From contig OZ336870.1 in NCBI GenBank assembly GCA_965287045.1, positions 148,056,001-148,120,000 on the forward strand: a DNA stretch of 64,000 nt. Reading direction: 5' to 3'. This document shows positions 8,450 through 50,833 of the stretch, piece by piece. Every line of letters starts with the position of its first letter. Within the stretch, counting starts at the first letter, position 1. The DNA is from Carcharhinus amblyrhynchos (taxonomy: Eukaryota). Under the pieces are notes generated by a model, which did not search any database, was not told where the DNA came from, and was given only the letters and a program-made list of their open reading frames with translations. The position numbers and the translations under genes are program-made.

Positions 8450-8705
8450 CGAAAATGGTAGCACAGTCATTAGCACTGCTGCCTCACAGTGCCAAAGACT
8501 CCAGTTTGGTTCCTGACTTTGACTGTGTGGAGTTTGCATGGGTTGCCTCCCACAGTTCGAAAGACGTGCTTGTTAGGTGCATTGGCCATGCTGAATTCTC
8601 TCTTTCTACCTGAACAAGTGCCAGTGTGTGGAGACTAGGGGATTTTCATAGTAACTTCATTGCAATGTTAATGTAAGCCTACTTGTGACAATAAATAAAC
8701 TTTAA
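8450..8705 (+). mobile_element. HE1-like tRNA-derived SINE
   Basis: tRNA-like head (gcacagt...agcactgctgcctcacag), central ggtgcattggccatgct and AATAAATAAAC tail, shared with other copies in the window. Confidence 0.8.
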
Positions 8706-9376: not shown

Positions 9377-9620
9377 GGGCAGCATGGTGTCACGGTGGTT
9401 AGCACTGCTGCCTCACAGCACCAGGGACTTGGGGTCAATTCCCAGCTTAGGTCACTGTTTGCTCTCTCCATTTCTGCGTGGGTTTTCTCCAGATGCTCCA
9501 GTTTGCTCCCAGAGTGAAAGAGGTGCTGGTTAGGTGCATTGGCCATGCTAAATTTTTCCCGAGTGTAGGAAAAGAAGAAACAAAAATGTGTCTGGAACAA
9601 ATGTGCCGGTGTTTGGAAAC
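9377..9620 (+). mobile_element. HE1-like SINE
   Basis: gggcagcatggtg...ggttagcactgctgcctcacagcaccagggac head, same family as the other SINEs. Confidence 0.8.
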
Positions 9621-9789
9621 AAAATAAGGGGGTGGTAGAGTTGGCAGAGATTAGTGTCTAAAATTGTTGCGCTTAATGGTGCACCTGAAAGGCTGTAAAG
9701 TGCTTAATTGAAAGATGATGTGCTATTTCTCAAGCTTAGTTGAGTTTCACTGGAATAATGCACCAAACCAAGATAGATGTCAGCTTCAG

Positions 9790-11822: not shown

Positions 11823-11824
11823 GG

Positions 11825-13010
11825 GGACAATGTCACAACTGTGGGGAAAATAGGCCACTTCAAAACAGTTTGCATTAAACCACTGACAGCCTGTAAAAAA
11901 GCGAAAATCTTAAAGCAGAGCCGCGTACATAAATGAAAGAACCACAAGAATAGGAATTAATCTTCTCCAGAGATATAGATGACACTGATAATGAGTCTTC
12001 AAGTTAAACTCAAGTGGATGGACTGAGTTTGAATTAGATACAAGAGCAGGGGTCCCTATTTGATTAGATGAAGTTAATTTCTCAAATAGATAACTTTGAA
12101 ATCCTTGTCAATTAAAGCCAACTCTAAACAAAGCTGAAAATAAGATTGAACAATCCTTAAACCTCTTGTCATTTAAAATCTGTACTGTCCTCTACGAAAG
12201 AGAAAGGCTTATCTAAAATTGAAATTAATTTGTATGGTGGAAGAAGTTGCGAATGAGAATTACATCACATAATTCCAAAACAAATTTGAAAAATTATTTA
12301 AAAGGCTAGGGAAAACGCATCACACTCAGGTGATGCTAAACCATTTTGTGTCTTTACACCAAGGAAAGTCCCTCACTCATGTTTAGACCAAATCAAGGTT
12401 GAAATAGAAAGAGTCCAGTGACCAGATGTTATCTAACCAGTCAACATGTCAACACAGTGGTGTGCAGGCATGGTTACAATTCCAAAACCAAGCAGCTCTA
12501 ATATTGTTGTATTGTCATTGAACTATTAATCCAAAGACCCAGGGGAATCCTCTGGGGATCTAGGTCTGAATTTTACCATGGTAGATGGTTAAATTTGAAT
12601 TTAATAAAAATCTGGAAGGAAAATTCCAACAATGACCATGAAACCATTGTCAATTGTTGTTAAATCCCATCTGGGATCCTTTAGGGTAGGAAATCTGTCA
12701 TTCTAACCTGGTTCAGTCTACACATGACTCCAGATTCACAGCAATGTGGTTGACTCTTAAATGTGATCGGAATAGCTGTTGGAAGCCCCAGTTCAAGGGC
12801 AATTAGGGATAAGTGCAGGCCCAGCTAAAGGTGCCCACATCCATGAATGAATAAAAGAAAAATTGGAAGGCATAGAAAGAACAAGATGCCATATGGACAG
12901 CATCAACCCATGAGAGACCCACATTTGCAGTTTCAGAACAGCCCTGAGTCCCTTAGTGTAGGTATGCCTGAATAAAAAATGAGTTCACCAAACCCATTTT
13001 TTAGATCACA
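11825..13010 (+). mobile_element. Gypsy/Ty3 LTR-retrotransposon gag-pol remnant (continues at ~15790-15940); SINE-like insert ~12500-12860
   Basis: CCHC knuckle (C-H-N-C-G...GHFKTVC), protease-like FELDTRAG, PRKVP, WCAGMVTIPKP, CHMD, and after the nested LINE, LRRFLGTVNQVGKF. Confidence 0.75.
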
Positions 13011-15790
13011 TAGTTTGATTTGATTTATTATTGTCACAAGTATTAACATACTGTGAAAAGTATTGTCTCTTGTGCACTATACAGACAAAACATACCATTC
13101 ATAGAGAAGGAAACGAGAGAGTGCAGAATGTAGTGTTACAGTCATCGCTAACTTAATGCAGGGTCAGTCCATTCAAAAGTCTGACAGCAACACAGAAGAA
13201 GCTGTTCTTGAGTGGGTTGGTACATGATCTCAGACTCTTGATTCTTCTTCCCAAAGAATAAGGTGGAAGAGAGAATATCCGGGTTCCTTAATTATGCTGG
13301 CTACTTTGCCGAGGCAGCAGGAAGTGTAGACAGAATCAATGGATGGAAAGCTGGTTTGAGTGATGGGTTGGGCTTTGTTCATGATCTTTTGTAGTTCCTT
13401 ATAGTCTTGGACAGAGCAGAGCCATACCAAGCTGTGATACAACTAGAAAGAATGCTTTCTATGATGCATCTGTAGTGTCGGCATGGGGGGACCAGGGCAG
13501 GTTGTTGGTTATTTGGAAATGTAACCATCCTGAATACCGTTGTGTTGACATGTTGACTGGTCAGATAACATCTGGTCACTGCACTGTTTCTATTTCAACC
13601 TTGATTTGGTCTAAACGTGGGTAAGAGACTTGTTGTAAAAAGGCAAAATGGTTTAGTATTAGCTCATAGGGTGATGCTTTTTCCCTAGCCTTTTAAAAAA
13701 TTGCTCGAATGACTCGAACCGTTCTACTTTGTTCCCATTGATATAGACGGACATGTTCTCCTTTAAGCTTTCTGAAGTCGATGACAATCTCCTTTGTTTT
13801 GTTGACATTGAGAGAGAGATTATTGTTGCCGCATCAGTTCACCAGATTCTCTATCTCACTCCTGTACTCTGTCTCATTGTTGTTTGAGATTTGACCCACT
13901 AAGGTGGTGTCATCAGCAAACTTGAAAATCAAATTGAGGAATTTGGCCACACAGTCATAGGTATATAAGGAGAATACTAGGGGGCTGAGAACGCAGCCTT
14001 GCGGGACACTGACGTTGACGATGATCATTTAGGAGGTGTTGTTGCCTCCCCTTACTGATTTGTGGTCTGAGAATTAGGAAGTTCAGGATCCAGTTGCAGA
14101 GGGAAGTGTCGAGGCCCAGACCATGGAATTTGGAGATGAGGAGTTTCCTGGAAATAATAGTGTTGAAGGCTGAGCTGTAAATAAATAAGAGTCTGACATC
14201 AATGTCCTTGTTATTTAGGTGTTCCAGGATTTAGTGCAGGACCAGGGAAATGGCATCTGCTATGGACCTAATTGTGGCAGTAGGCAAACTGTAGTGGACC
14301 CAGATGGTCCAGGAGGCTGGAATTGATTCGTGCCATGACTAATCTTTCGAAGCACTTCATGATGACAGATGTCAGAGCTACCAGCCAATAGTCATTTAGC
14401 ACACTGCTTAGTTTTCCTTAGGTACCCGGGATGATAATGGGGTATAATGTTAGCAAGTGTGAGGTTATCCATTTTGGCAGAAATAATGGTAGGAGGGATT
14501 ATTATTTAAAAGGCGAAAAGCTGCAGCATGCTATGGTGCAAAGGGACCTGGGGGTCCTTGTGCACGAGTCGCAAAAACCCAGTCTGCAAGTGCAGCAGGT
14601 GATCAAGAAGGCGAAGGCGAATGGAATGTTGGCCTTTATAGCAAGGGGGATAGAGTATAAAAGTAGGGAGGTCTTGCTGCAACTGTACAGGGCACTGGTG
14701 AGGCCGCAGCTGGAGTACTGTGTGCAGTTTTGGTCGCCACGCTTGCGGAAGGATATATTGGCCTTGGAGGGAGTGCAGAGGAGGTTCACGAGGCTGATAC
14801 CAGAGATGAGGAGGTTGGCCTATGAAGAGAGACAAAATAGACTGGGTCTGTACTCGTTGGAGTTTAGAAGGATGAGGGGGGATCTTATAGAGACGTATAA
14901 GATAATGAAGGGGGTGGATAGGGTAGAGGTAGAGAGATTCTTCCCGCTTAGAAAGGATAGCAGGACTAGAGGACAGAGCCTCAAGATAAGGGGGGTGCAG
15001 TTTAGATCAGAGTTGAGGAGGAACTTCTTCACTCAAAGGGTGGTGAATCCCTGGAATTCTCTGCCCGTTGAAGTGGTGGAGGCTACCTCGCTGAATATAT
15101 TTAAGTCACGGGTAGATAGGTTTCTGATAGGGGAATTAAGGGTTATGGGGGGAAAGCGGGAAAGTGGAACTGATCCACTTTAGATCAGCCATGATCTTAT
15201 TGAATGGCGGGGCAGGCTTGAAGGGCTAGATGGCCTACGCCTGCTCCTGTTTCTTATGTTCTTATGATGGTCATCTTCTTGAAACAGATAAAGACCTCAG
15301 ATTGTTGTGAAGAGAGGTTGTAGATGTTATCATCATAGAATCATCGTAGAAACCCTAATGTCTGTGAATACCCCTGCCAGCTGATATGCGCAGGATCTGA
15401 GTGCATGTCCGGGTACCCCATCCGGACCAGTTGCTTTTCATGGGTTGACCTTCAAGAAAGCTGCTCTGACATTTGCAGTATGACCCCAGATACAGTTTCT
15501 TCCAGGGTAGAAGGCATGCTCTCACTGACCTCTTGCTCAAAACAGATGTAGAACACGTAGAGCTCATCAGGGAGAGGTGCGTTGGAGCCAGCAATTTTAC
15601 ATGCCTTCATCTTGTAGCCTGTTATGTCTTGCAGACCTTACTGTTGTCGGCAGGGGCTAGTGTGGCTAGCCTGGCGCTCTAGTTGGCCCAGCACTATCTT
15701 TTGGCATCTTTGATAGATCACCTTAGATCATACCTGACTTTCTTGTATAGGTCAGTGTCGCCTGACTTGAACGCCTCAGACCTGGACTTC
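13010..15790 (-). mobile_element. Rex1/Babar LINE, degenerate, split by a CR1 insertion
   Basis: [23 protein letters not shown]...KFADDTT (ORF 13834-14028). 3' end matches copy 146-1072. The element resumes after 15265. Confidence 0.8.
14443..15266 (+). mobile_element. young CR1 3' fragment nested in Rex1
   Basis: ORF 14431-15183 is closely related to the 5950-7818 copy. TTCTTATG tail present. Confidence 0.95.
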
Positions 15791-16022
15791 AGCAAGCAGT
15801 GGATATCCCGCTGCATGCTGAAGTTCTAGGTGACCGGAATCACAGTGATCCACAAAGAAGACAAATATTAGAGAATTTCTGCACCTAAACTGCGAAGATT
15901 CCTTGGGACGGTGAACCAAGTTGGCAAATTTCTGAATATAGCAGAGGTCACCGGGTGGGTCGAGGTAAAACTTTTGAGATGGGAATTTGGCAACAAAATT
16001 GTTTTTTCTGGGCAACAAAAAT

Positions 16023-16310
16023 GGGTGGCATGGTAGCACAGTGGTTAGCATTGCTGTGTCACAGCGCCAAGGACCTAGGTTCAATTCCAGTCTTGAGTGG
16101 GGCTTGCACATTCTCCAGTGTCTGGAGTGTGAGACGAAACCAGGAAGAAACCCATGCAAAGGTATACAGGTTAAGTTTATTGGCCATGCTAAATTGCCAC
16201 TTAGTGTCAGGGGGATTAGCAGCTTACGGGGAGAGAGGGACTGGATGGGATTGATGTCAGTGCAGGTTTGATGGGCCAGTGGCCTCCCCTTGCACTGTAG
16301 GGATTCTATG
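16023..16310 (+). mobile_element. HE1-like SINE with CR1-type tail
   Basis: tRNA-like head and gcactgtagggattctatg 3' end. Confidence 0.8.
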
Positions 16311-16409
16311 AAAGAATTAAACAATTTTTCACCTCCTCTGAAATCTTGGTTCATTATTATGATAAAAATTAAAGACTACAGTGTTGCCCACTGGTCTGGG
16401 GACAGTAAA

Positions 16410-16890
16410 TTCTTTCATTGGAGGTGGGCATCACTGGCTAGACCAATATTTTTATTGTCCACACCTAATTGCCCTTGAATTGGTGCCTTGCTCAGCTGAG
16501 CCACTGCCTTGACCTGCTGCAGCCCAAGTGATGTAGGTACAACTACAGTGCTGTTTGAGAAGGAACTCCAGGATTTTGACCCAACGACAGTGAGTGAACA
16601 ATAATTTATTTCCGAGTCAGGATGGTGGGTGGCTTAGAGGGGAACCCCAGGTGGTAGTGTTCCCATGCATCTGCTATCCTGCCCTTCTGGTTGGTAGGCA
16701 TCATGGATTTAGAAGGTGCTCTCTAAGGACCCTTGATGAGTTCCTGCAGTGCATCTTGTAGACGAAACATTGTGCTGCCAATGTGCATTCGTGATGAAGA
16801 GAATGGATGGAATGTCAGTCAAGCCGGTTGCTTTACTTTGGATGGTGTTGAATTTTGAGTGTTGTTGGAGTTGCACTCATATAGACAACT
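16410..16890 (-). mobile_element. old CR1-clade 3' fragment
   Basis: Similar to the 3' end of the 2800-5250 element (attgtcc...cttgaa...ctgcag...gaactccaggattttgaccc). Confidence 0.6.
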
Positions 16891-17540
16891 CTATTTGAAG
16901 CTTACAATAAAGAATTGGAAGACCTGCATTACACAACACCTCCATTCAGTCTGCAGGCATGATCTTGAGCTTCCATTGACCTGCCATTTTAATTCTCCAC
17001 CTAGCTTTCCAAGCTGGAGTCTCATTACCTTGGCCTCTGTGCTGTCCCAGGGAAGCTCAACATAAGCATAAGGAATTGCACATCTTTTTGCAGTTAGGGA
17101 CTCCCCCAGCCTTCTGAACTCGACATTGAATTCAACAAATTTCAGACTGTAAACTCTGTCTCTTTCGTTCCCACCCTAGCCCCTTAACCCCCCAACCCCT
17201 TAACTCCCCCCGCCCCGCCCTTTTCAGTGGTTTTATTTTTTCTTATAGAAACTGATCTGCTCTGGGCACTTTTTTGTTTCTTTTCCTGCCTACCACCATT
17301 GCCTTTGGTCTTGTAGGACTAAATGTTCTGTAACTTAATCTCCCCTGTCTTCCACACTGGCACAGACCTTCATTTTGTCCTCCTTCCACTTGCCACTTAT
17401 TGTAATTTTCTGATGAAAAAATCATCAACCTGAAGCATTAACTCTGTTCCTCTCTCTACAGTTGCTGCCTGACTTGTTCAGTGTATCAGTATTTCTGTTC
17501 TTAGTTCAGATTTCCAACATTTGCAATATTCTGCTTTACC
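16890..17540 (+). mobile_element. Penelope-like element remnant (GIY-YIG end and terminal repeat)
   Basis: HLHSVCRHDLELPLTCHFNS-like frame, followed by a degenerate terminal repeat (ctgatga...cctgaagc ttaactct...gctgcctgact) seen dispersed elsewhere in the window. Confidence 0.55.
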
Positions 17541-17966
17541 ATCCCAAAGTAAGCTTCTTCCTTCTGCACTGTGGAGGAATATGGTTGGTCACATGAGAAA
17601 ATACCTGTGTTAGATACAAACTTCCTTTATGTTGCTTACTCCCTACACTGATGGCCCAGTATTTGTATATTCCACACATGAAATATGCTTCTCAGAAGAG
17701 AATCTGGAAAGTAAATCATATTCCTATTCACATGTAAATATTAATAAAATCCCTTATTCTGATTTCACAGCACACTGGGTTTTCTCCTCAATGTTTTATT
17801 ATTAAGACAATATCCAATGTGTCTATTGATGATGCATTCATTTTCACATTTTCTTATTTAGAGCAAAGTATAGAAAAATTTTATTATATTGAAGGTTATG
17901 TTACATCAGTGAAAAATAATGTAAATTGCAGAACAAGTATTTCATGTGCATCACTGTACATTCCAG

Positions 17967-18134
17967 GTATCTTTACAGACACCTTCTTATGTTCTACAAC
18001 AAAAATTCTGATGTGGTGAGCCAGTCTATTTTTTGCATTGAATCTGGAAGAAAAGTTCTTACTGTTAAGGATCGTACTAATTTTCACCTTTATCTGAATC
18101 AACTGCCAAAAGGAGCTGCACAGATTAAACAATT
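17967..18134 (+). CDS. ADAD1: ADAD1 coding exon
   Basis: ttccag/gtaagt boundaries. Encodes YLYRHLLMFYNKNSDVVSQSIFCIESGRKVLTVKDRTNFHLYLNQLPKGAAQIKQL. Confidence 0.95.
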
Positions 18135-19669
18135 GTAAGTCGGGAAATAGAACAATGTTTTGAAATAGTCTGTTCCTGAAATGGTGTAGATTTGTATCTG
18201 AGAGATATTTCTTATTTTATACGAATGGCACCCATATATTTTGTTGAAGATTACATTCCCAAATGATGACTTGTTTGAGGGCCATTTTCATTAAATACCA
18301 GAAGGCAATTATGTTTGCTTGTTTTTAACTATAGCATGTCCAATGAACATAAGTTTCAAAAGAAAGAATGTATGTGCACTGAATATTTTACATTCTCTGT
18401 ACTTAATCAGCAACTTCAACATTAGAAAATTATTTCATAATATAAAGTTTACAGACCTGATTAGCATATTACAAACTCCATTCAGTACACAAATCATCTA
18501 TATATGTTAAATTTGCTATTTATACTTGTTATGTTCAGTAATCTGTCATTTTATTTAGGTCGCAGCACAAAAGGATTTCCATTATTAAGTGAGCAGTTAT
18601 TGGTGTCGCTAGTATTAGCTCTATACGCCATACTCCTAGATTGAGCTACATAAACTTAAAAGTTCGCCACTGTTTTCCGTTGACTGAAGTTTGCATTGAT
18701 CAGTTGATTATGGGTAGTTTACTGATGATCAACTTTCCTTTGTGCACAATTCCTGCTGCTAATGAATAACAATAAAAATAACATATTTAATCCTTTCAAC
18801 TCCAAGGGCCTTGACCTAACATCATTGAGCTCAGCTAGCTGTTTTGTTTTTACTTTGTATTACAGCTGTGTCCACCATTATCAGTAAGATAGTAAGAAAG
18901 AAGCTTGTTGAAAATTGGGTTCTTCTGGCTGCCAGTGGTGGAGGAGCCAGGAAATCTCAATTCCAAAGTTTCTAGGGAAGAGATGCAGGTGCCAAACATT
19001 TTTTAATTATCTTGGCTTTATTATTAAGCTTGCTTCTAGAACCCCACCCATAATTCCTTTGACAGATGATTACTCTTGGACATCGGAGTTCAATGTAATT
19101 TTTCAGGAGTGGCCAGTGATCCTATACCTAAGTGAAATATGTAACACAAGCATCTATAGAAGTAAATCTCACTGAGCCTTGGATGTATGCATCAAGTGAA
19201 CTCTTATTACATAATATTTCAGTGAACTTTTCTAAAAACAAAACTTTCTAGCTTTATGTTTACAACAAACTATTTCAGGTGAAATCCATCAGATTTCTGC
19301 AAATGCATAGCAAAACTGCCAGCACGCACTTGCAAAAAACAGATTAATATTTTAGGCTGGTTTCTGACTTCTAATGGCTGATTGAGACTCACCCACTATT
19401 GTACTTTGAAAAATCAAACATTAACTTACAATGTAAATTAAGGCAATTGCAGGTATTCAAATCTTCAAGTTCTTTCCTGTTGTTTGAGTATTTGTTGTTT
19501 GTTCTGCTCTCAACCCCACAAAGTGATCCACTTATTTTTTAATTATGATAAAACCTTAAGCTCAAAATGTTAACTTTTCCATTTGCTTTATAGTTGCTAA
19601 GTGACCTGCTGTAATTTCCACTATTTGCTCTTTAATCTTAAAAGGAAACATGTAACTTTCCTCACATAG

Positions 19670-19902
19670 GCATTTGGCTCCTCACTCGATATCTACCTTT
19701 CATACTAACAAAGAAATGGAACTTCATGTTATTTTGGATGGAAAAGTGTACGCAATTAGTCATTGCAGTCCTGAAGTAACCAGTAGTAAAGTGTGTAGCA
19801 TGTCCGCCAGTGATAAACTTACTCGCTGGGAAGTGCTTGGAGTTCAGGGAGCGCTACTGAGTCACTTCATTGAACCCATTTACATCAACAGCATTCTTAT
19901 CG
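19670..19902 (+). CDS. ADAD1: ADAD1 coding exon
   Basis: catag/gtgagt boundaries. Encodes HLAPHSIS...[35 protein letters not shown], containing the ADAR-family WxVLGxQGALLS motif. Confidence 0.96.
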
Positions 19903-20779
19903 GTGAGTGTGATATTTCAACATTTGGTATTCTGCTAAAATGTATTGCATTTAGCTTTCATTATTAAAGAACTTGATACATTTTGAAAATTTTTGCACTT
20001 ATTAAAAATTTTTTAGCTTGTCAAAAGGTTGTATTTTGTGATCCTTTTATAAACTTCACTCACATTGGTCACCGAAGGTGACTCCTGTCAAGTTTGTTCC
20101 ACTCGAGCTTCTGTTATTTCCAATTCCTGATGAAATCAAGTAGCAGTTGCTTCAAGTATAATTTGCAGTAGCACCTGAAACAACTTTGCTGAACTCTTAA
20201 TGCATTACTTTGCCACGATATGTATTTTGAGGACAAATCTTGAGGGCTTTTATGTGCATTAAAGAGAGGACAATCTTCTAACCTAGAAATCATTTTGGGG
20301 TTTTGTAAAAGTTAGATAAAGTAGATGACAAGGTGCATAAAATTTAAAATCTAAGGCCAAATAAATAAACCATGAGACATCATGAGTGGAGTTCTCTAAT
20401 CTTGTTCATTCCCGCTCTGCTCCATTCACTGCAGTGGCACTGGAGAATCCAGCCCAGGACGAGTTTGGATGTTTCCAGTGTACATCACCAAAGGTTTGCT
20501 GAAGAAAAGTGACAAGAATTTTAAATGGTCGTGACAGTTTGTACTGCATTAGTATCTTGTCATGTTGTTTTACTTCACATGCATTTAAGTGCAAATAAAT
20601 CTAAACAAGCTGTTTATCTTGTACTTATCAATCTGGCAGGATACTATATTCTGTCTTCTGAAACAAAGGAAGATTATAGTGGGGCATCCTACTTATTTTG
20701 CAGAAAGTAGTTTACAATGAGTCACTGTTATACACTTATTCATGTAAGCACAGAATAAATTCATTGAGTTCAGTTTGGA

Positions 20780-22775
20780 AGTGGGAAAGTTCAAATTGAA
20801 GCCAAGGTGTTAAAGTTGAATAAATGAAACTATGAAGACACGAGGGACAAATTGGCTGAGGTGCATTGGGAAAATACATTTAGAAAAATGAATGTGCATA
20901 GGTTACAGTCTTCAAAGAATTATTACATGGCTTACAGCACCTATACATTTCTTCATAGTGCAAAAACTTAAAGCCAGTTAACCATTGTTGACAAAGTTCA
21001 GGAATGTATAGAATTTTAAAAAAAGTTTATAAAGTCAATAAAAATAGTAGTAAACTCGAAGATTGGAAGGTTTTTAGAATCACCAAAGGAAGGCCAACAA
21101 ACTGATAAAGAAAGGGACAACAGAATATAAACACAATCTAGCAAAAAACATGAGTGTAAAAGCTTCTATAGGTATGTAAGAAGAAAGTGTTTGGCTAAGA
21201 CGCATGTGGGTCCATTCCAGGCAGAGTCAGAAGAATTTGTAATAGGGAATAGAAAATGGTAGGGAAGCTAAGTGATTTCTTTGTGTCTGTTTTCACTAAG
21301 GAAGATGCAGTAAATCTCCAAGATGTAGAGATTCAAGGGATTAGGGAGAATGCAGAGTTGAAGGAAATTAAAGTAAATTAGTTATATTGGGGAAATTAAT
21401 CTGACTGAAAGCTCATAAGTCCGTGGGACCTGATATCATGCATCCCAGAGGTTTGAAAGAGGTTACTATAGAGATGATGGATGCATTAGTGATCATCTTC
21501 CAGAATTTTATAGATTGAAAGGTAGCAAATATCATGGCACTATTTAAGAACAAAGGGAGAGAGGAAACCTGTTAGCCTTACATCAGTGGTAGAGAAAATG
21601 CTGGAATCTATTATAAAGGATGTGATAAATAGACATTTGGACAATTGGCATAGTCGGCGTGGATTTACAAATGGGAAATCATATTGACGAACATAGTGTC
21701 ATAGAGGTTTACAGCATGGAAGCAGGCCCTTCCACCCAACTTGTCCATGCTGCCCTTTTTTTTAACCACTAAGCTAGTTCCAATTGCCTGCGCTTGGCCC
21801 ATATCCCTCGATAGCCATCTTACCCATGTAACTGTCTAAATACTACTTAAACAACAAAATTGTACCCGTCTTTACTACTACTTCTGGCAGCTTGTTCCAG
21901 ACACTAGCCTCCCTTTGTGTGCCCCTCTGGATCCTTTTGTATCTCTCCCTCTCACCTTTAAACCTATGTCCTCTAGTTATAGACTCCTCTACCTTTGGGA
22001 AAAGATGTTGACTGTCTAACTGATCTATGCCCCTCATTATTTTATAGACCTCGATAAGATCACCCCTCAGCCTTCTACGCTCCAGAGGAAAAAGTCCCAG
22101 TCTATCCAGCCTCTGCTTATAACTCAAACCATGAAGTGCTGGTAGCATCCCAGTAAATCTTTTCTGCACTCCTTTTAGGGTAACCAGAACTGTACACAGT
22201 ATACCAAGTGTGGCCTTACCAATATTGGTGTTTTTTTTTGAAGATGTTATTAACAAAATTGATAAAGGAGAGCCAATGGATATAACATATTCGGACCTTT
22301 CGAAGGCTTTTGACAAAGTCCCCCACAGAAAGTTAATTAGCAAAATAAAAGCACATGAGATAGGAGGCAACATACTGTCATCAATTGAGGATTAGCTAAC
22401 AGGTGGAAAACAGTAGGAATTCAGGTTATTCTCACATTGACAGGCTGGGCTAGTAGGGTACCACGAGGTTCTGTAGTTGGGCTCTAGCTATATCAATTAC
22501 CTGGATGTGGGGACCAAATTTAATATTTCCAAGTTTGCAGATGATAAAAGCTAGGTGTGAATTTGTGAGGAAGATGTAAAGTAGCTATAGGAGGATTTGG
22601 ACAAACTTGAGTGAGTGGGCAAAAATATGACAGATGGAATATTAAGTGGAAAAATGTAGAGTAATCCATTTTGTTAGAAGGAATGAATGTGCAGAGTATT
22701 TTCTAATGGTGAGAAATTATAAAGTGTAGATGTACAAAAGGTATCCTTGTCCATAAGTCACTGAAGGCTAGCATG
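20780..22775 (+). mobile_element. degenerate CR1 ORF2 (interrupted by an opposite-strand CR1)
   Basis: Fragments such as KAFDKVPHRKL (ORF 22210-22395) and KFADD. Confidence 0.85.
21695..22220 (-). mobile_element. CR1 3' fragment nested antisense
   Basis: VQKRFTGMLP...RRRLRGDLIEVYKIM in ORF 21843-22373, with a CR1 tail at ~21700. Confidence 0.9.
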
Positions 22776-22899
22776 AGCCTGTTAAAAACCTGTTTAAAAT
22801 AAGTTTAAAGCACTTTACTCTTTGTAGAACTGTTTAAAGCATTTATTTATTGTATTTACTGCTTTAAGAATTCTGAGGGTGTGGTGAAAAGGCATTTGT

Positions 22900-23630
22900 G
22901 GACCAGCCTGCTTTAAATCAGCGCCAGGTTTAAAAGGAGGCCTGGTGTAGACAGCGGGCAGCGTCTGAGCGGGCAGCGGAGTGAGTGGGAAGCAGAGTGA
23001 GTTAATAGGGCTTAATATCAAAAAGGGCTGGAAGGAAAAAAGGCCAGGTGAGTTTGTTTGAAAAAAAACAAGGAAAAAAAATTTTTTCAAAACTACTACA
23101 GCAAGAAACAAGGAAAAAAAATTTTTCCCCATAAAAAATTACAGTGAATAATGGAGGGGCATGTGATGTGTGGTTTCTGTATGATGTGGGAACTGGCGGA
23201 CCCCAGGGTACTTCCCAGTGACCATGTCTGCAGTAAGTGCAGGTTGCTGGAGGAGCTCCAGCTCAAGGTGGATGAGCTGGCCTCTGAGCTACAGACACTG
23301 AGGCTCATCAGGGGGAGAGAGGGTGCCCCTAGACTGGCTAAATCTAAGGGTCAGGGACAAAAGGGGGCTGCTGGGAGGAGGAGGAAGGGGGGTGAGGAGC
23401 GGAGGCCTCAGCCTCTTAATCTGCATAACAGGTTTGAGGTTCTTGCTTCCAGTCTGGAAGAGGACGAGGCAGGTGAGGTTGGTGAGCAAACTGCACACGG
23501 TACAGTGATGCAGCAGGACATAGGCAAAGAGAAGGGGAAAAGGAACGTAGTAGTGATTGGAGATAGTGGGGTGAAGAGTATTGACACTGTCCTTTGTCAC
23601 AATGACAAAGTGCACAGAAGGGTGTGTTAA
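22900..23630 (+). mobile_element. CR1 5' end: 5'UTR plus ORF1 (Zn-finger/coiled coil, start of GDSL esterase), 3'-truncated
   Basis: ORF 23151-23630 has CGFC...HVCSKC, a leucine-zipper-like LEELQLKVDELASEL, NRFEVL, and VVVIGDS. The upstream UTR is GC-rich with short repeats. Confidence 0.85.
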
Positions 23631-24531
23631 TAATGAAACTCTAGAATATTTTGAATCAGTATGCTTTGGATTTGGCAAGATTTGAAGTCTTCAGCTGACA
23701 AAGCTGACCACAGTGTTTAAAATGCCAACAAAGTAAAATGATTAGCAGATTCTTTGCTCTTTATTAAATCCAAGAAATTTATCTGCTTGACCTTTTGAAC
23801 AGAGATTGTTGATTGCTTTCATACATTTTTGTGACTTCTATCAATGATGATGAGCTCTCTGATGTCGCCACATCAGAAAAGGGTTCCAGCGCCCCTACCC
23901 TACTGTCCTGTTTTAAATCCACTCTAACTGTTGGCTACACAAATGGGAGAGTCATTTTTTTTTACTGTTTCATAACTCTTCACAATCTGTAGCAATGATT
24001 TGGATATGGGGAACAAATGTAATGTTTCACAATTTACTGATGACACAAAACTTTGTGGGAATGTAAGTTGTCAGGATGATGCAAAGAGGCTTCGAGGAGA
24101 TTTAGATAGGCTAAGTAAGTGGATAAGGACATGACAGATAATGAGGAAGAATGTGAATTTATCCAATTTGGTAAGAAAAAATATGGATGCATTTCTTCAT
24201 TGAAGAGAGATTGGGAATTTTTGATGTCCAGAGAAACATGGGTGTTCTTTTTCATACGTCACTGAAAGTTAACATGCAAGTGCAGCAAACAACTAGAAAG
24301 ACCAATGGTATGTTGACCTTTATTGCAAGGGGAATTGAATACAGGAGTAAGGAATCTTGCTACATTTGTATAGAACTTTGGTGAGACCAAATCTGTAGTA
24401 TAGTATGCAATTTTGGTCTCCTTACTAGGGGATGGACCTACAGAGGGACTGTAGTGGTGTTCCACCAGACTGATTTCCAGGATGGCAGGATTTTCCAATA
24501 AGGAGAGATTGAAGACGTGGGGCTTGTATTA

Positions 24532-24845
24532 GAATCATGGAACCCTTACAGTGCAGAAGGAGGCCATTTGGGCCATCAAGCCTGCACTGATAACAATCTC
24601 ACCTGGGCTCTATCCCTGTAGCTCCACGTATTTGCCCTGCTAGTTCCCCTGACACTAAGAGGCAATTTAGTTTGGCCAATCAACCTACCTCATCTTTAGA
24701 CTGTGAGAGGAAACCAGAGTACCAGGAGAAAACCTACGTAGACACAGGGAGAATGTGCAAACTCCACACAGTCACCCGAGGCCGGAATTGAACATGGGTC
24801 CCTGGCACCGAGAGACAAGTGCTTCCCACTGTGCCACCATGCTGT
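24532..24845 (-). mobile_element. HE1-like SINE
   Basis: Reverse complement of the SINE head (ccactgtgccaccatg) and CR1-type tail (cagtgcagaaggaggccatt). Confidence 0.8.
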
Positions 24846-24871
24846 TCTTTAGGGTTTGAAAAAAAGAGAGA

Positions 24872-25543
24872 TGTTGTGGGACAAAATTAGCTGTCAAGCA
24901 ACTTTCAGACGTCCCCTTCAAATACCAGACAACAAATTTCAGAGTTTTTTTTAAAATCGGCCTTTATTTCTTTGAGCGATAGCAAGGAATCTGATATGCC
25001 AGCTGATGGCGCAGCAGAGAGTCTGGAATAGAGCATTACACAGACAGTTGTACTTCGAGGTCTTACATAAGCATATATCAATCAGAGATTTACATTTGCT
25101 CAAAAGTTATCTGTATCAACTCGCAACTAACAGTTAGGATTACATAAGGTATAACATAAGGGGATGGTTGCCTAATAACTTGTGCATGTTTATCTAATAT
25201 ATCACTAAGCAAGTATTTATTTCTATATATCTATGAACTTCTAGACCCAATTGTGATAGCTACATGTCGACCTAGTGGTATATCAACCCCTTATGTCATC
25301 CCATGTTCATGTCCTTTGTTAAAACAGACACTAACAAACTGCAGATGCGCACAATTCAAGAGGCTTTGTGTGTAGGTTGTGTGACTGAGCTCTTCTTTAT
25401 AATTGGAAGTTTTGTGCCCCTTAACTCTTAACTGCATCTGCTTTAATCAAGACCTGTAGTTTTCTCAGTTTTCCTTTGTGTGACTTGAGCTTAGAAGCTT
25501 GCAAGTTGTGATTTTTAATCTGACGTGATGATTAACCCTTTCA
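24872..25543 (-). mobile_element. solo LTR (ERV/LTR-retrotransposon)
   Basis: TG...CA termini (minus strand TGAAAGGG...CCCACAACA), near-perfect 5-bp TSD agaga/agagg, CCAAT+TATAAA at ~25396-25406 and AATAAA at 24963-24968 in the correct order on the minus strand. It interrupts a CR1. Confidence 0.75.
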
Positions 25544-26054
25544 AGAGGAGACCCGAAGTGTGCAAAATTCTTACATGTCTTGACAAGGTAGATGTAGGAA
25601 GAATGTTTTCTCTGGTTGGTGGAGAGCAGCGGGGACGATCTAGAACTAGAGGGTGCAGTCTCTGAATAGGAGATTAGTAAGCAATTAAAGACCAAGTTGA
25701 AAAGCATCTTCAGTAAAGAGGTGGTGAATATTTGGAATTTTGTATCCCAGAGGTCTGTGGAGGTGCAGTCATTGAGAATGTTCAAAGCAGAGCCGATAGA
25801 TTTCTGGATACCCATGACTTCAAGGGATGTGGGGATAGAGTGGTGAGATGGAACATCAGCCAAGATCTAGTAAAATGGCAGAGCAGACTCAAGGGGTCAA
25901 ACGACCTCCTCCTGCTCCTATGTTTTTGTGCTTTTAAACAATGTTAAAAGTTTTCCTATGATTTCCCCTTCAATTTGTGTCAATGCTTATCTGTATTATT
26001 GTGCATCATGCTTATAATTTACTTCTAAAAATCATATTTACTTTGACGTTCCAG

Positions 26055-26292
26055 GTGATGCTAACTGCATAGACACACGGGGAGTGGAAGTTGCAATTAA
26101 ACAGCGTGTGGATGACTCATTAACTTCAAGGCTTCCAAATTTCTACATTGTCAGCAAACCGCAAATATGCCTGACAGAAACCGCATATCCTTGTCAACCA
26201 AATCCTATTCCTAAAACCCTCAGCCTCAACTGGTCTCAGTCGGATTGTTTGGTAGAAGTGGTGAATGGTGCAACTGGAAGGATTGCTGGAAG
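26055..26292 (+). CDS. ADAD1: ADAD1 coding exon
   Basis: ttccag/gtaata boundaries. Encodes (G)DANCIDTRGVEVAIKQRVDDSLTSRLPNFY...LSLNWSQSD...VVNGATGRIAG. Confidence 0.95.
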
Positions 26293-27644
26293 GTAATACC
26301 ATTAACTTACTATATTTCAGAAAATGCAGCTGGTGTGACATAATCAGTGGAGAGAGAAAGAATTAATATTTTGAGTATGTGTGCCTCTAAACGTTAACTG
26401 CTTCTCTCTCTATAGTTGCTGCTAGACCTGCTATATTTCCAGCATCTGTGGTATTTTGCTTTAATTATAATTCACTTTAGATTATCTTCTGGTGCAGTGG
26501 ATTTGCTCATTAAGAAGTACTAATGCCAGAATCTGAATTCTCGCTGCTTTTTAGTAGTGCAAGCTGTTCTCATGAGATCACTGGATATGTTAATTGCATA
26601 GTTTGCTGTTTTTCATTAGCTGGCATTATTAATTGACAACACTGGTAAACTGTGATTTGTGATTGAATACTACCTCTATGCCCCTCAACTTAAATCCCCA
26701 TTTCTCATTAATTCATACTGATATCAGAGCCCTACTCTCCTCCAGATACTTGTCACTATGTTCCAAGTATTTAAACTTATAAGCTGTTCTTGTTTTTGTT
26801 AGTGCTACTCTTTTTTTCAGCACTTGGATTCAGAGGTTTGTTTTTGAAGAGCTTCATGATGGTTGTTTTGTTTGTTTAAGTTTTATGCCCACTCAAGGAT
26901 TAAGGTTTTTTGAAGAGATTTTTGAATGGATATTTGATTTTTGCAGTATCGTGAGCATCTCAAATACTTGCTAATGTTATTACAGGGCTCATGAGTTCTG
27001 TCATTAGTGAGCTGGCATGGGGTTGCGGGCTAAGGTGCCTAACACTTGTGTAGAACTGGGCTGATGTCCTGGGGAACTGTGGCAGGCTGCCTAACCTGCC
27101 TGCCTAGGTATCTGTCAGCCTTTGTTCCCACCCTGAGTTTGCCCCTGGGGGCAGCAGTCCCAATGCAAAAATAGTGGAGGAAGGTACTGTTGGACAGGAG
27201 GTGAGATCATTGTGTGTTGGAGGTCTCCTGATTTGTGACTTCCCTCTTAAAGGGCATAGTCCAGCCAATGTAGTTCTGAATGGACTTCGATTACTTTATG
27301 CATATGGAGAATAAATGTCTGTCAGAATGTTCAGAAGAAATTGTCTGCAGTGGTTATCTTGATATTTATTTCAGCAGTTTTGTCAGATTTTGAGGACAAA
27401 TGTTACATAACAAAACACCTGAGTTTACAGGTTCTAGTAAAGAATAGGGTGTTTTAACCCCTTCTACCCCTCCAACTTGGTGAAAATCCTGGAGATAAAT
27501 TACAGCAGGGAACTTAGCCACTCAATTCCCAATCTGAATCATGGATTGCAATTTTTAATTGTAAATGGTAAGAAAACTCACATCTAGCCACTGATGTCCG
27601 CTATACAGATGTCAGTATCCACCGGAAACCTCTGACCTCGTCTA

Positions 27645-27755
27645 TGCCTGGAATTTTCCAGGCCTGCTGCAGTGAATGGCGTTTTGGCTGAGTGCCAAAT
27701 TCTCCATTCTCGCTGGCAGCCAGGGTGGGGTGAACGAGATTGGCAAATCCTGCCA
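27645..27755. mobile_element. short MITE-like element with imperfect terminal inverted repeats
   Basis: g-cctggaattttcca ... tggcaaatcctgcc ends, similar to Harbinger-type non-autonomous elements. Confidence 0.35.
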
Positions 27756-28839
27756 TGATGTCATCTGCTGTTTTAACCTAAAGGCTGAGCGGAAGACCAG
27801 TGGTGGCTTTCCCCACTTTTTCCCAGGGTAAAAAGTAATGAACAGTGGACAAAGCTGACCAGATTCTCCACATGATTGGTGCTGTAGACTGTTTTTAATG
27901 GAGCCATGAGCTATGCAACATTAGTAATGCTGCAAACAGCCTGGCAGGGAAGGGGTCCTGCCTAGTTATGTAAAAGAAAAATACTGTGCTGTGCTTCAAA
28001 AGATCTTTGGTTTCCAAAGTAACAGCTTTCTGATCTGTTGTCAATGCTTCCTTGCAATTTGGGCTTCAGTGTTGCTTGCTGTAGATTGGAGAATTTTTTT
28101 TTGGAAAATTAAACTTTAATCATAGAATTTCTAAAAGAATATCATTCTAAAATGCAAAGTGCAATAATCTTCAGGTTCTTTGTAAGTTACACTCTTGAGG
28201 TGCTTCAATACAGTCAAAGAAACATTGGAGACATTTCAAAATGGCCCTTATAAATAGTGCAAGGGTATTTAAAAGCTGTCTGCATTGTTCAAAATGCACT
28301 CCGAGGTGTTTCAGCACAACTGAGATGCATGTAATATTCATTGTATACATTCGGTGAAGATTGAAGAATATGTTTTACAAGGAATGGATGTTATACTATA
28401 CAATGTATAATGTCTTACGCAGCAGTGAATCTGTCTGGTACTAGAATGTTCCTTAAGGTCATAAGTACTGTTCCCTCTAGGCCATACCACAGCCTAAAAC
28501 TCACTGGGCAGGCTGCCGGCAAATTGGTCCATTTGTGTTACTGCCAGTGCAATGCAGCACAAAAAATTTAAAGGGACTTCTCCAAAAGAAAATTAAAGGA
28601 TATGTTGACCATGATGTTTAATCATTGAAGTCAGTTGACAGCTAATTGCTGTAAAACATCCTTTTCTGTTGCTTGAAAACTTTAGGGCAAAAGTTTGTTT
28701 CAAAAACTTCTATAACTGAAGTGTAAAGGAATTCTGTAGGCATTCGTTTTTCTTACAACCAGTGCTTACTGTTATTGCTAATGTTGTGTCAGGAATGGAT
28801 TGTTGGTTGTTTGTACAATAAATATTAGGCCAATTGGCC

Positions 28840-29680
28840 AAAAACTTTATTAAAGAAGTAGGTTTTAAGATGTGCCTTAAAGCAGTAAGGAGGGGTAGAT
28901 TTGGAACTATTTAAGATGGAAATTCCAGATTTTCAGGTCTAAGCAATTGAAGGCATAGCCACCAATTGTAGAGAAATTAGAATTGGAATGCTCAAGTAGC
29001 CAGAATTAGGTGAGAGCAACTATCTCTGAAGGTCGTGGGGCTAGAAGAAATTACAGGGATAGAGTGGACTGATGGAGGCAGTTGAAAACCAGCTTGAATG
29101 TGTCAAAATTGAGGTCATGATTGATTGCCAATTTGGTCAGCAAGCATAAAGGTGGTGGATGAATGGATCTTGATGCAAACAAAATATCAGGATGCAGAGT
29201 TTTAGATATGGGCAAGTTTACAGAAAGCAGTGTGTGTGAGGCCAACTGCAATTGTATTGTCATAGTCGAGAGGTGGCAAAGGCATGAATGAGGGTTTCAG
29301 CAAAAGATGTTGCAGAGATGGAAATAGGCAGTCTTAATAGCACAAATGTGTGATCAGACATTCATCTCAGGGTCAAGTATGGCAACAATGTTATTAATAG
29401 TTGGTTTTAATTTTAACTTGCCAACTAGAGGAATTAGTCATCAGGGAAAGGAGTTTGTAGTGGGAATGGTGTAGACTAAATGACAGATAGTTCCCGGTTT
29501 TCTCTTGCTCCCCTTTCTTGAATCTGATGCTGCTAACTTCCAATTTGCTAAGACTGGTCAAGAATCTAGCAAATTATAGAAAATCATAAGCAAAACATCG
29601 GTTATCTCTGCAGCTGCTTCTTTGAGAACCTGAGGATGTAGCCCATCAGGGCCTGTCACTTTATTGGCTCTTGGTTCAAG
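28840..29680 (-). mobile_element. highly degenerate LINE remnants (L2-like, then CR1)
   Basis: CR1 fragment VTGPDGLHPQVLKE at the end of ORF 29558-29941. The upstream part resembles an L2 3' region. Confidence 0.5.
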
Positions 29681-31032
29681 TTGCTCTATTGATAGATACT
29701 TTAATTTGCTCACTCTCATCTCCTTGGGCCAGGACTTTACGTTCCCATTCTTCCTGGTTGAGTTTGGTAATAGGAGCAGAAATTTTGTGGTAGGCCCAAA
29801 TCTTGTTTCACATAAGGGTGAAGTCTCAGCATGATTGTCACTGTCCCATGCCAATGAGGTAATGGGAATCTCAATGTTCAATGTCATTATAATGAATATG
29901 AATGTAATTGTCAGACCTCTATGCCTGATCAACCTCCCCATTTTAATCTGTTCATGTCAGAGTGCATCCTAGCATGAATTACAACTGGTCTCCCACAACT
30001 TGCATCTGGCGGGCAAACGTACCAGAGGAACTCAGATGAGTGCATTGCTTAGCAGAAATGGATCATGACAGGGCAATGCTGTGGGGTTCTATTTTAGCTT
30101 TTATACACTGGGGCCCAAAAAAATGCACCCTGATATTTAAAAGTACTAAGTTGCTGGCAGAATGGGCTCTGCCAGCATGAGATTGTGGAAGTGCCCTTTT
30201 CAATTTTCCTGAAATGTCCTTAATATTAAGGTAGAGAAAGCCACCATTGGTACAGTGACTTCAACCCCACTTTTGTGGCCTGCTGTCATGTTATGCAAAA
30301 CAAAAGGTAAAAGTCAATCCTTGATTGTCATCTAACTCTGCAACTTACTTTGTGTTCTTTACGTGTGAAGACAGACAAAATGTTTGTTCAAAGTTCTGCC
30401 ATTTCTTCATTCCCCGTGATGATTTCTGCCCTTATGAGACCAACTTTTACTTTAGCTAGTATGCTTTTAAAAGCTCCTCCAACCTTTGCTGTTTCCTGAC
30501 TTATTTAATCTCATTTTATTTTTTCCCCTTCCCATCAATGTTCTGGTCTCCCTTTGCTGGTTTCTACAGTACTCTCAATCTTCAGGCTTTCTATTATTCT
30601 TCTAAACCTTCTTTAATCTTTTGTTATTCTTAACTTCCTCAGTCAACTACGGGTGGATCTTCCTTGCTTAGTTTTTTATTTTTTAAAGAATATATTCATA
30701 GGAACATTTTTAAATAATGTTTCACTGCTTATTTGTCATACCTTTTCTGTCTTTTTATCCAATCAACCTCAACCAGCTCTTCTCTCAAACAAATGTATTT
30801 TATTTTGTTAAAAATCCAGTGCAGCCCTCCCTCCATGATACATACCACTCCAGTGGTTTGGGCAATAATTTGAAGCTGTTTCTAGTAAGATGAACTTGTA
30901 AGAATATGATGAATACATTTTAATCTACTGAAACAAACCCATCTTGAATCTTAAACTTATAGGCAATTCTTATGCACTGATTTTATTATTTTATTGTCTT
31001 TTCAAAAAAATGGTATTTGTTCTGTTTTTAAG

Positions 31033-31165
31033 CTCTCCATTTAAAAGTGGTACCTCCATGACCAGCCGCTTATGCAAAGCTGCCATGCTGAGTCGCTTTT
31101 ATCTTGTTGCAAAAGAAGCAAATAGAGAAGATTTGTCTACGGTTCCAACATATCATGCAGCAAAG
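31033..31165 (+). CDS. ADAD1: ADAD1 coding exon
   Basis: tttaag/gtaaag boundaries. Encodes [44 protein letters not shown]. Confidence 0.96.
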
Positions 31166-31821
31166 GTAAAGTTGCTTTCTGGTTGAGGAAACATCTCTCA
31201 GTCAAATGTACCCTAGCCTTTTCAGAAAAATATTGTTCGATTAAATTGTTTTAGGCTGCCACTCTAGACTCCATCCTTCTCCCTGCAATAGCAAGTTCAC
31301 AACCTTGCTGTCACATTTGATCCCAAGATAATCTCATATACATTACATTTTGAAGGTTTATTTCCACCCTACTCTCCCTTCATGCAGTGACTGGCAATTC
31401 CCAGCTTTTGTGTGTTCAGTTCCATAGATGGAGCAATTTCTTTGCTAAAGTTCATGTTGACTGAAAAGTCATTGCGCAAAAATAGTTCTTTCACCCACTG
31501 CCATTTCTAACTTAATAGCATTATTGGTACATCAAAGTTTGTCTGTCATTTGCTTGATATCTGTGTCTCTAGTTTCAACATGCAGTTTGTACCTATTGTA
31601 GTGGAAGTTATTTGCAAGTGGAGTGTCTGTTTGTATGGATTTCCTTGTAGGTTGGTTTGCTGTGCATTTGTTGGGCATTCAACATGATTAAAATCTCTAA
31701 TCTGCTTCTTTAACCAATTGAAATCACTGGTCTGTTTCTTTAAAGAAACTGATTTTAAAACTTTTACTTCAGATTTCCAGCATTCACTTTTTTATGTCTT
31801 TCAATTTTTCATTCCTTTCAG

Positions 31822-31938
31822 ATGATGGCAAAATCATATCAAGAAGCAAAAGCTTTGCTGAAATCATCTCTGGTGCATCATGGTTTTGGTACCTGGCTAG
31901 TCAAGAATCCAAATGCAGAAGTGTTCCATGTGCAATGA
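31822..31938 (+). CDS. ADAD1: ADAD1 terminal coding exon
   Basis: tttcag acceptor. Encodes MMAKSYQEAKALLKSSLVHHGFGTWLVKNPNAEVFHVQ* (ADAR C-terminal YQxAK...GxGxW motif). Candidate ATTAAA at 32051-32056. Confidence 0.95.
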   Translation: MMAKSYQEAKALLKSSLVHHGFGTWLVKNPNAEVFHVQ

Positions 31939-47749: not shown

Positions 47750-48182
47750 TTTATTTGTGTTTATATCTTGAATCAGAACACTGTAAATTTTAAATACATA
47801 GCAGAAACATTAATAACTTATAGTGAAGAAACATGTCATATATAAATAAGGTAGATTAAATGCAGTGTACTCTTAACAATTGTGACATTTTTGAATAAGT
47901 TATAAATATCAACATCATAGTTATCCACATAAAAATATCCTGTTTACAAAACACTAATTGTAATAAACAAGGCTAGGTTCAGGCACATTACAAACAACGC
48001 TAGTGCAACAGCTTTACATTCAGCACTAGTGATTAGTTTGTAATCTTATATTTTCAGAGCAGCCTTCATATGATTATTAAAAACACAAATTAAATAGTGA
48101 AGTATAATTTTCCAATCTGAATTTTCAAGTTACTTTATGGCAGCTTTGTTGACAACATGCATAGCTTAGAGTGTCTTTATGT
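47750..48182 (-). promoter_or_regulatory. IL2-like 3'UTR with AU-rich elements and poly(A) signal
   Basis: Minus-strand ATTTA at 48091, 47903, 47857, 47843 (within nonamer TTATTTATA), 47791 and 47784. AATAAA at 47750-47755. Confidence 0.75.
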
Positions 48183-48308
48183 TCATTGAACGCTGTCGAC
48201 ATTTGCATTCCGTTCTTTTTTCATTTTCTGTGAGAACAATATCAGCTGAGACATGAAGTCAGTGAAGTTCTTCTTTTCGCTTTCACATTTACATGCTGAA
48301 TCACGTGC
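48183..48308 (-). CDS. IL2: IL-2-like cytokine exon 4 (helix D)
   Basis: ttttcag acceptor. Encodes ARDSACKCESEKKNFTDFMSQLILFSQKMKKERNANVDSVQ*, with the Cys-x-Cys-Glu, FxxF and helix-D Gln pattern of the IL-2/15/21 family. Confidence 0.85.
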   Translation of the reverse strand, partial: ARDSACKCESEKKNFTDFMSQLILFSQKMKKERNANVDSVQ

Positions 48309-48581: not shown

Positions 48582-48710
48582 CAATTTCTTCATATTCCTA
48601 CTTATAATACTTAGGCGGTTTATACATTTCTTTCGCTCACTGGTAAGCTCCATGCAGTTCCGTTTCAAACTTTGCAATTCTTTTATAAAGAGGCACACAG
48701 AATAATTGAG
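48582..48710 (-). CDS. IL2: IL-2-like cytokine exon 3 (helices B, C)
   Basis: tttttcag/gtaagt boundaries, 129 nt, phase 0. Encodes LNYSVCLFIKELQSLKRNCMELTSERKKCINRLSIISRNMKKL (helix-B ELxxL as in IL-2/IL-15). Confidence 0.85.
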
Positions 48711-49722: not shown

Positions 49723-49761
49723 CTCTACATTTACAGGAGTGCATAGAGGGCCCCAAGTGTC
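49723..49761 (-). CDS. IL2: IL-2-like cytokine exon 2 (AB loop)
   Basis: ttttccag/gtaagc boundaries, 39 nt, phase 0. Encodes DTWGPLCTPVNVE (LxTP motif of the family). Confidence 0.85.
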
Positions 49762-49867: not shown

Positions 49868-50011
49868 CAGCCCAATTTTCTTGAGGTCCTTAGCATTTTT
49901 GATAATTTCAGTCAGGGCTGCACCGCTGTGTTGGTTGGCACCTGTGAAAGTGGTGTAAGTTAACACAACAAAGAATGTGCACAGTAACTGCTTCATGATC
50001 ATAGACATCAT
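49868..50011 (-). CDS. IL2: IL-2-like cytokine exon 1 (signal peptide + helix A)
   Basis: Encodes MMSMIMKQLLCTFFVVLTYTTFTGANQHSGAALTEIIKNAKDLKKIGL with a gtatga donor. Hydrophobic signal peptide, 106-bp first intron, TATA ~55 bp upstream of the first ATG. The true start may be a later Met (e.g. 49996). Confidence 0.87.
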
Positions 50012-50064
50012 TTGTTCTGAAGACAGGAGCCTGATACAAGTTTAACCATAGTTGCAGATATCTA

Positions 50065-50305
50065 AATTTATACCCTTCTTGGGGGGAAATCGTGGGAGTG
50101 TTCAGTAGTCACTAGTTTAGTTTTTTGTACCTTTTATGATTGATGAATAATATTAGACTTTCCTCTTTGATGACTCTCTGGAATTTCTTCAAGCCTGGTA
50201 GTAGTAGAGGATGCTGGTAAAATCCCTTTTTGGCTAACCTCTGACTAAAACCACTAAACCCATAAAGTTGCACACTTTCATATGTGAGCATGACTACAAT
50301 TTTCC
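50065..50305 (-). promoter_or_regulatory. IL2-type proximal promoter/enhancer
   Basis: Minus strand: GGAAAATTGTAGTCA (NFAT:AP-1, 50291-50305), GGGATTTTAC (NF-kB, 50217-50226), AAGAAATTCC-AG-AGAGTCA (CD28RE/AP-1, 50171-50189), GAGGAAAG (NFAT, 50158-50165), GTATAAATT (TATA, 50065-50073). Confidence 0.88.
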
Positions 50306-50833
50306 TGCTTTGAAAAGCAACTCGCACTTTTATCTGTGCAACCACATTTTTGACAAAATCCTTTAAAATTTCATGAGTTTGTCTTGCAAAAATGATGTTA
50401 AAATGCAAGCTGCAAGAGTTCATTTGCAGAGAAGCATAAAAACAAAATATGTGCTTGTTTGTTCTTCTAAAAAACAGGAAGAGTGTTGGCTTCCTGTTAC
50501 CAGGTAGTCTGCTGCAGTGAATAAAACACAGTGTTTCCTCGGTTTAACCTGTATGGTGTTGACTGTTGACTGAATATGCAATTAAAAACGCTGTTAGAGT
50601 TCAGTTATTTTTGCTGATTTGTATAAGAATTAGTCAAGTTACTTGCAACTGTTGTAGTACTTCACTGACTTGCTGATGTGTTAACAAGGTGCATATTCCA
50701 AGCAGAGTAGCTCTATAGAGTTCCCATTTCTCCACAAACTGTAATAACCATTAATTCCAGGAATATACTGTTACTTGGGACATCCAGCGTATGCACATCT
50801 CTGGAAAATTCTAAATTGTAAATTTAAACATAT

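Follow-up and report, generated by a model that had tools for sequence, protein, structure and literature searches.

Promoters of immune genes usually turn over quickly, so that identity of a control element over long evolutionary distances is not what would ordinarily be looked for. The chicken IL2 promoter, reportedly dealt with by Kaiser and Mariani in 1999, is said to provide a precedent for the use of a promoter as an orthology marker. The closest known system is the mammalian IL2 promoter, in which the CD28RR (the CD28RE/AP-1 composite) extends from -163 to -147 and an NFAT/AP-1 site from -287 to -274, according to the positions printed in PMC3167847. On the protein side, the LXTP motif and the residues characteristic of the IL-2/15/15L/21 family are defined in section 8 of PMC3894449. 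Shark IL2 has been hard to identify because its protein is so diverged, and in PMC7658486 it still carries the designation "alias IL-2-like".

The DNA analysed here (the window) is a stretch of 64,000 nt from a shark genome. An original prediction, made from its letters, held that the minus strand carries the mammalian IL2 T-cell-activation promoter nearly verbatim. The features discussed below are collected in Table 1.

Table 1. Positions of the putative promoter sites, of the cytokine exons and of two neighbouring genes (window coordinates unless another locus is named)
Feature	Position	Strand	Remarks
Distal NFAT:AP-1 composite, ARRE-2-like	50287..50311	-	GGAAAA core 50300-50305
kB-like site	50217..50226	-	Weakest of the promoter sites
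CD28RE/AP-1 composite	50168..50189	-	CD28 response element 50180-50189 and AP-1 site 50171-50177
Proximal NFAT-type site (GGAAA)	50159..50167	-	Directly after the AP-1 site
Fifth element, GGAAA core	50085..50089	+	Just upstream of TATA; missed by the original prediction
TATA box	50067..50072	-	61 nt upstream of the first ATG
Exon 1, coding part	49868..50011	-	48 aa, hydrophobic signal peptide, helix A, phase-0 donor
Exon 2	49723..49761	-	39 nt; LCTP corresponds to the family LXTP motif
Exon 3	48582..48710	-	129 nt; three cysteines; family-motif F and E
Exon 4, coding part	48183..48308	-	41 aa and stop, CxC, helix D
3' UTR	47750..48182	-	Six ATTTA motifs and AATAAA signal
ADAD1 exons	5606..31935	+	Synteny marker; 3' end faces that of the cytokine gene (tail to tail)
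IL21-like gene	L035:3503-9951, C1:148.34-148.35 Mb	-	Exons of 120, 42, 117 and 96 nt

The composite element and the promoter around it

The core of the element is identical at 22/22 positions to the CD28 RE EMSA probe (Il2 locus) printed in PMC12043515, the agreement being 26/28, in a count made by eye, when the six bases upstream are included, and it matches 21/22 positions of a second printed probe, the CD28RR of PMC3167847. Downstream of the core, the sequence continuing through the proximal NFAT-type site agrees in 19/20 aligned letters with an "IL-2 F" primer of untraced species printed in PMC10834503, with one base missing, and its GGAAA lies one base closer to the AP-1 site than in that primer. 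The single indel by which, according to the prediction, the shark element differs from the mouse Il2 sequence is thus supported.

Within the window, a single match to the 22-mer is found when up to three mismatches are allowed, against 0.00 expected from 100 shuffles. Across the 2.92-Gb genome there is one exact match, one with one mismatch and two with two mismatches, and a reversed-pattern control gave 0 matches in the same genome. The only exact copy is the one upstream of a cytokine gene, where 117 nt separate it from the TATA box, and the joined 19-mer leading from the core into the proximal GGAAA is likewise unique genome-wide as an exact match. Scans of metagenomes for vertebrate copies gave 0 matches to the 22-mer pattern and at least 119 chance matches to a 17-mer, none of the 80 examined extending past a score of 38; the one match obtained for the element by blastn against plasmids was judged to be due to chance. 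Shark and mammals have the composite element in common beyond what chance would yield.

All four motifs of the prediction were found on the minus strand at the positions claimed. The description of the promoter as nearly verbatim applies to about 31 nt, but the other sites are only moderate matches. Compared by eye and without gaps, the distal NFAT:AP-1 composite shares 16/25 positions with the human site and as many with the mouse site of Table 3 in PMC2588514; the proposed parallel stands as regards the register, GGAAAA being followed by 6 nt and TCA as in mammals, but not as regards the AP-1 site, which is altered in its 5' half. In the NF-kB region, the candidate kB-like site agrees in 9/10 positions with a 10-mer listed for two IL-2 papers; the longer human context proposed for it was not found by full-text literature search. 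The TATA context was correctly anticipated, nine of its letters being as in the minimal promoter of human IL2 whose sequence PMC4176967 and PMC13125903 give in print, and TTTCC is separated from TATAAA by 12 nt here versus 11 nt in that promoter. Three related sharks have one base fewer at 50081 in this spacer, giving 11 nt. In mammals, the GGAAA core adjacent to the TATA box serves as an NFAT site.

Over the surrounding 584 kb, each secondary-site pattern was counted between 4 and 47 times (P 0.001-0.012 per 300 bp), with 20 occurrences for the loose distal NFAT:AP-1 pattern (P ~0.005) and 47 for the kB-like one (P ~0.012), all these probabilities referring to patterns that were defined after the matches had been seen. 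The succession of distal NFAT:AP-1, candidate kB-like site, CD28RE/AP-1, proximal NFAT, TATA-adjacent NFAT-type core and TATA reproduces the order and orientation of the mammalian sites. The slight compression of the spacing that had been announced was also borne out, since the core lies 117 nt from TATA in the shark versus ~136 nt as calculated from printed human positions (about 19 nt shorter), and the distal site lies 116 nt from the core versus about 120-124 nt in mammals. An Oct/AP-1 element between the proximal NFAT site and TATA is a feature of the mammalian IL2 promoter; no clear octamer was seen by eye in this interval, which is the compressed stretch of the shark promoter.

Part of the region is covered by 22 sequencing runs from 12 studies, none of them listed as RNA, and four runs were aligned. 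The promoter is covered in three related sharks with no loss of depth at 50125-50318, their overall identity of ~93-94% being too close to reveal selection; run X21 covered 10/30 bins and did not span the core. Mammalian contamination or mis-assembly as the source of the match has nothing in its favour beyond the identity itself, and is rendered extremely improbable by the shortness of the match, which covers 22-31 nt and is embedded in shark sequence of a 182-Mb contig, and by the presence of single contigs spanning 47700-50600 in two other organisms and 48118-50600 in a third.

The cytokine gene and its neighbourhood

The gene downstream of the promoter is composed of four phase-0 coding exons with canonical splice sites that would yield a protein of 145 aa, with the leader in exon 1 and the stop in exon 4. 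Exon 3 is present in the genome as a single copy. With a register assigned partly by eye, LXTP, F44, D/E89 and Q108 of the IL-2/15/15L/21 family are all present, as are cysteines that may form the pairs typical of the family. Of the three IL-15Ralpha-binding residues, also placed by eye, E47 is kept, C replaces Y28 and N replaces D/E54, the latter residue being missing as well from mammalian IL-2 (PMC3894449). In helix D of exon 4, F and Q are in register with those of an IL15-like last exon (L006:1492-1590, minus strand) located 7 Mb away at C1:155.36 Mb, which matches the Pfam IL15 family with an E of 0.00016; the two exons share 34% identity, with a pairwise BLAST E of 0.002 over 11 aa. The possibility that the cytokine gene itself is the IL15 locus of the genome was rejected, the IL15-like exon being found at this other position.

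Protein searches were carried out with single exons, and because these queries measured 32-48 aa the negative outcomes are weak ones. No family match was obtained in Pfam exon by exon (including IL2, PF00715), no relative was found in PDB with single exons or in word searches of proteins with exons 3 and 1, and the ESM Atlas returned nothing useful for a single exon (best 0.77). The only phmmer match of exon 4, a protein of 2149 aa with six repeated stretches (P0121), was judged unrelated. When the Pfam IL2 profile was run against the genome it produced four sub-threshold matches, all elsewhere, and did not find the cytokine locus. This outcome favours the proposal that the promoter is a better orthology marker than the protein, as the promoter identifies the gene where single-exon protein searches did not.

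The coding sequence is changing fast, exon 4 differing from that of related sharks about twice as often as the region does on average, with at least 16 differences in 126 nt as compared to 181 in 2901 nt overall (run X13), and positive selection on the cytokine is possible. In two related sharks, 6 nt are absent from exon 4 at 48276.

In another run (X20, record 10, guessed to be DNA) a diverged contig of 480 nt, corresponding to 48118-49923, joins exons 1-4 without introns. This contig, from a related organism (G), skips about the same three introns as the exon model and is possibly a processed retrocopy of the cytokine; if so, it would imply that the cytokine is expressed in the germ line. 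ADAD1 is a testis gene. No intronless copy of the cytokine was found in the present genome. About 12 kb upstream of the promoter, two overlapping open frames (80-88 aa), one on each strand and of non-repeat-looking sequence, were noticed at 62331-62650.

The genes follow one another in the order ADAD1, cytokine gene, IL21-like, BBS12-like and FGF, and the order around IL2 in mammals is ADAD1-IL2-IL21-BBS12-FGF2. Among the 301 of 387 candidates that were scored, the best matches of ADAD1 are from sharks (96-89% identity). The BBS12-like gene is a single-exon, chaperonin-like ORF of 719 aa with the FGF gene further on, the names BBS12 and FGF2 being given only from Pfam family, size and position. 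The IL21-like gene, located by a screen for a TATA box plus a signal peptide, lies 244 kb upstream of the cytokine gene on the same strand and has a weak match to the Pfam IL15 family (E 0.048). Its exon 4 is followed by a donor, and a short stretch at L035:2838-2864 is a candidate for exon 5, as expected of IL21. In its promoter (L036:1-200) a GGAAAA core is followed by an AP-1-like motif, and the CD28RE/AP-1 composite pattern is absent.

Between the IL21-like and BBS12-like genes, non-coding sequence contains a consensus NFAT:AP-1 site on the minus strand (L052:8260-8274), in which TGACTCA comes immediately after GGAAAA. A role as a gene promoter (L052:8274) was rejected on inspection, and the site is a candidate distal enhancer of the locus.

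The gene content of the locus bears on the question of whether the cytokine gene, instead of being the IL2 orthologue, is a paralogue from the IL2/IL21 locus with the promoter ancestral to the two. Such an interpretation would accommodate both the failure of single-exon queries to match IL2 and the replacement of Y28 by C and of D/E54 by N, two residues which, according to PMC3894449, are conserved in IL-2, IL-15 and IL-15L but which most IL-21 lack. However, a separate IL21-like gene with a different promoter occupies the expected place, the cytokine gene has its stop codon in exon 4 and has retained E47, and a heuristic screen of 584 kb found no further cytokine-like first exon between ADAD1 and the BBS12-like gene. 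In addition, an elephant shark IL-2 with the alias IL-2-like is already listed in PMC7658486, and a paralogue is accordingly regarded as improbable. Because of the probe identity (22/22 and 21/22), the uniqueness of the element, the order of the sites, the gene structure and the synteny, the locus is very probably the true shark IL2 promoter, with conserved Rel, AP-1 and NFAT inputs. This promoter and its mammalian counterpart would both descend from that of the jawed-vertebrate ancestor, purifying selection having kept it.

Origin of the element and the signals it may receive

Fragments of CR1-type LINE reverse transcriptase are scattered over the window (5874-7724, 14422-15183, 36422-37171, 44061-45045, 54721-55662 and 60155-61015). 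The 3' end of CR1, when reversed, resembles CD28RE/AP-1, which leads to false matches if the element is probed with mismatches. The element could then be conceived as a decayed piece of a CR1 LINE 3' end whose likeness to the mammalian site is fortuitous; alternatively, exaptation from such a LINE could have given rise to the IL2 element in an ancestor. Two of the three near-matches in the genome were inspected (L003 and L004) and both lie in the reverse-complemented 3' end of a CR1 reverse transcriptase; moreover, about 48 nt of the promoter can be aligned to two of five CR1 copies with a score of 29, which 0/200 shuffles reach (19.5 +/- 2). This alignment test was post hoc, however, and a neighbouring segment (47300) scored equally under softer scoring. 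A profile constructed from 36 CR1 copies yielded no match to the promoter even at E values up to 1000, 36/36 copies differ from the 22-mer at five or more positions, and no further exact copy of the 22-mer exists in the genome. Nor can coincidence explain why the element should lie upstream of a cytokine gene linked to ADAD1, in line with the other sites. A CR1 fragment that resembles the mammalian site by chance was rejected in view of the failure of the profile to detect the promoter and of the differences found in all 36 copies. The CR1 resemblance accounts for the near-matches in the genome and not for the promoter site; derivation from CR1 in either form is highly improbable, an ancient LINE origin of the element representing a small tail of the probability.

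As an IL2 promoter, the region would constitute a compact enhancer of about 240 nt, most likely working as in mammals. The CD28RE/AP-1 composite would accommodate one dimer of Rel (NF-kB) next to one of Fos/Jun, with NFAT occupying the three GGAAA cores (the distal one together with AP-1, the proximal and the TATA-adjacent). Transcription would require that an activated T cell receive the calcium-NFAT, AP-1 and NF-kB signals together, and the AU-rich 3' UTR would make the message short-lived. For the shark element, the binding of these factors, the inducibility, the restriction to T cells and the receptor acting upstream are inferred. Six Rel-homology loci were found in the shark genome, and Rel and RelA are present in Chondrichthyes (PMC12043515).

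Since the element is a Rel/AP-1 composite (PMC3167847), its conservation shows the transcription-factor input and not which receptor provides it. Whether shark CD28 signals through the element is a matter on which the chances look about equal. A different proposal, plausible although short of an even chance, is that the element is orthologous and functional but that in sharks the NF-kB/AP-1 input comes from receptors other than CD28, such as TCR alone via PKC-theta, TNF-receptor-family costimulators or IL-1/TLR signals. CD28 dependence would then be later wiring onto an old site, which is compatible with the IL2 promoter reading and competes only with the CD28 claim. The site is a generic Rel/AP-1 composite, and reporters that contain it respond to a combination of PMA and ionomycin (PMC3167847), consistent with such inputs. 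Furthermore, the elephant-shark Rel and RelA display comparable off-rates on a consensus kB probe, unlike those of mouse, human and frog, meaning that mammal-type c-Rel selectivity may not apply; the CD28 RE probe itself is shown in that study for human, mouse and zebrafish only (PMC12043515). Against this proposal, the CD28/CTLA4 family has been reported across jawed vertebrates including sharks (PMC12151841), and an identity of 22/22 would seem to exceed what generic kB and AP-1 binding needs.

In its broadest form, the hypothesis states that CD28RE/AP-1/NFAT has been a near-invariant cis-element from the origin of jawed-vertebrate adaptive immunity, with shark IL2 being induced by TCR plus CD28-family costimulation via the same Rel-Fos/Jun-NFAT assembly, while the protein, and probably its alpha-chain binding, drifted beyond recognition. 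We regard this as just as apt to be right as wrong. If near-invariance is true, the element could serve to find unannotated IL2 genes across cartilaginous fishes. The question of whether costimulation-gated induction of IL2 dates to the origin of jawed vertebrates also becomes testable with reporters.

Comparison with known IL2 systems

Reports of IL2 promoter conservation between sharks and mammals were not found in the literature as far as its text was available, and subscription papers or supplements might contain one. The elephant shark IL-2 and the IL-2/15/15L/21 family (PMC7658486, PMC3894449) share with the present gene the four-exon organization of a short-chain cytokine, the leader, LXTP, F44, E47, E89 and Q108, whereas Y28 and D/E54 of the IL-2/15/15L subgroup (PMC3894449) are not kept here. 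The passages available from these two sources deal with proteins only and contain no promoter comparison. A control element identical to that of mammals is in this respect an independent, sequence-level argument for IL2 orthology. The assignment of a diverged cytokine by promoter, exon structure and synteny likewise has parallels in chicken IL2 (reportedly, Kaiser and Mariani 1999) and duck IL2 (PMC6384428). These birds are amniotes; with the shark element, which was compared with printed mammalian sequences, the conservation would reach back to the base of the jawed vertebrates.

With the mammalian IL2 promoter, as far as printed, the shark locus shares the core (22/22 and 21/22), the order of the sites, the NFAT-to-AP-1 register and TTTCC placed 11-12 nt before TATA. 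It differs in the purine-rich flank 5' of the core, only 4/10 alike, in the gap between AP-1 and GGAAA, which is one base shorter in the shark, and in the distal AP-1 site, changed in its 5' half. Twenty-two bases identical across the shark-mammal split are surprising next to a coding exon that evolves at about twice the rate of the sequence around it, and suggest that the switch turning IL2 on in activated T cells is as old as jawed vertebrates. The element is not a new kind of system when set beside its mammalian counterpart, but one of unusually deep conservation.
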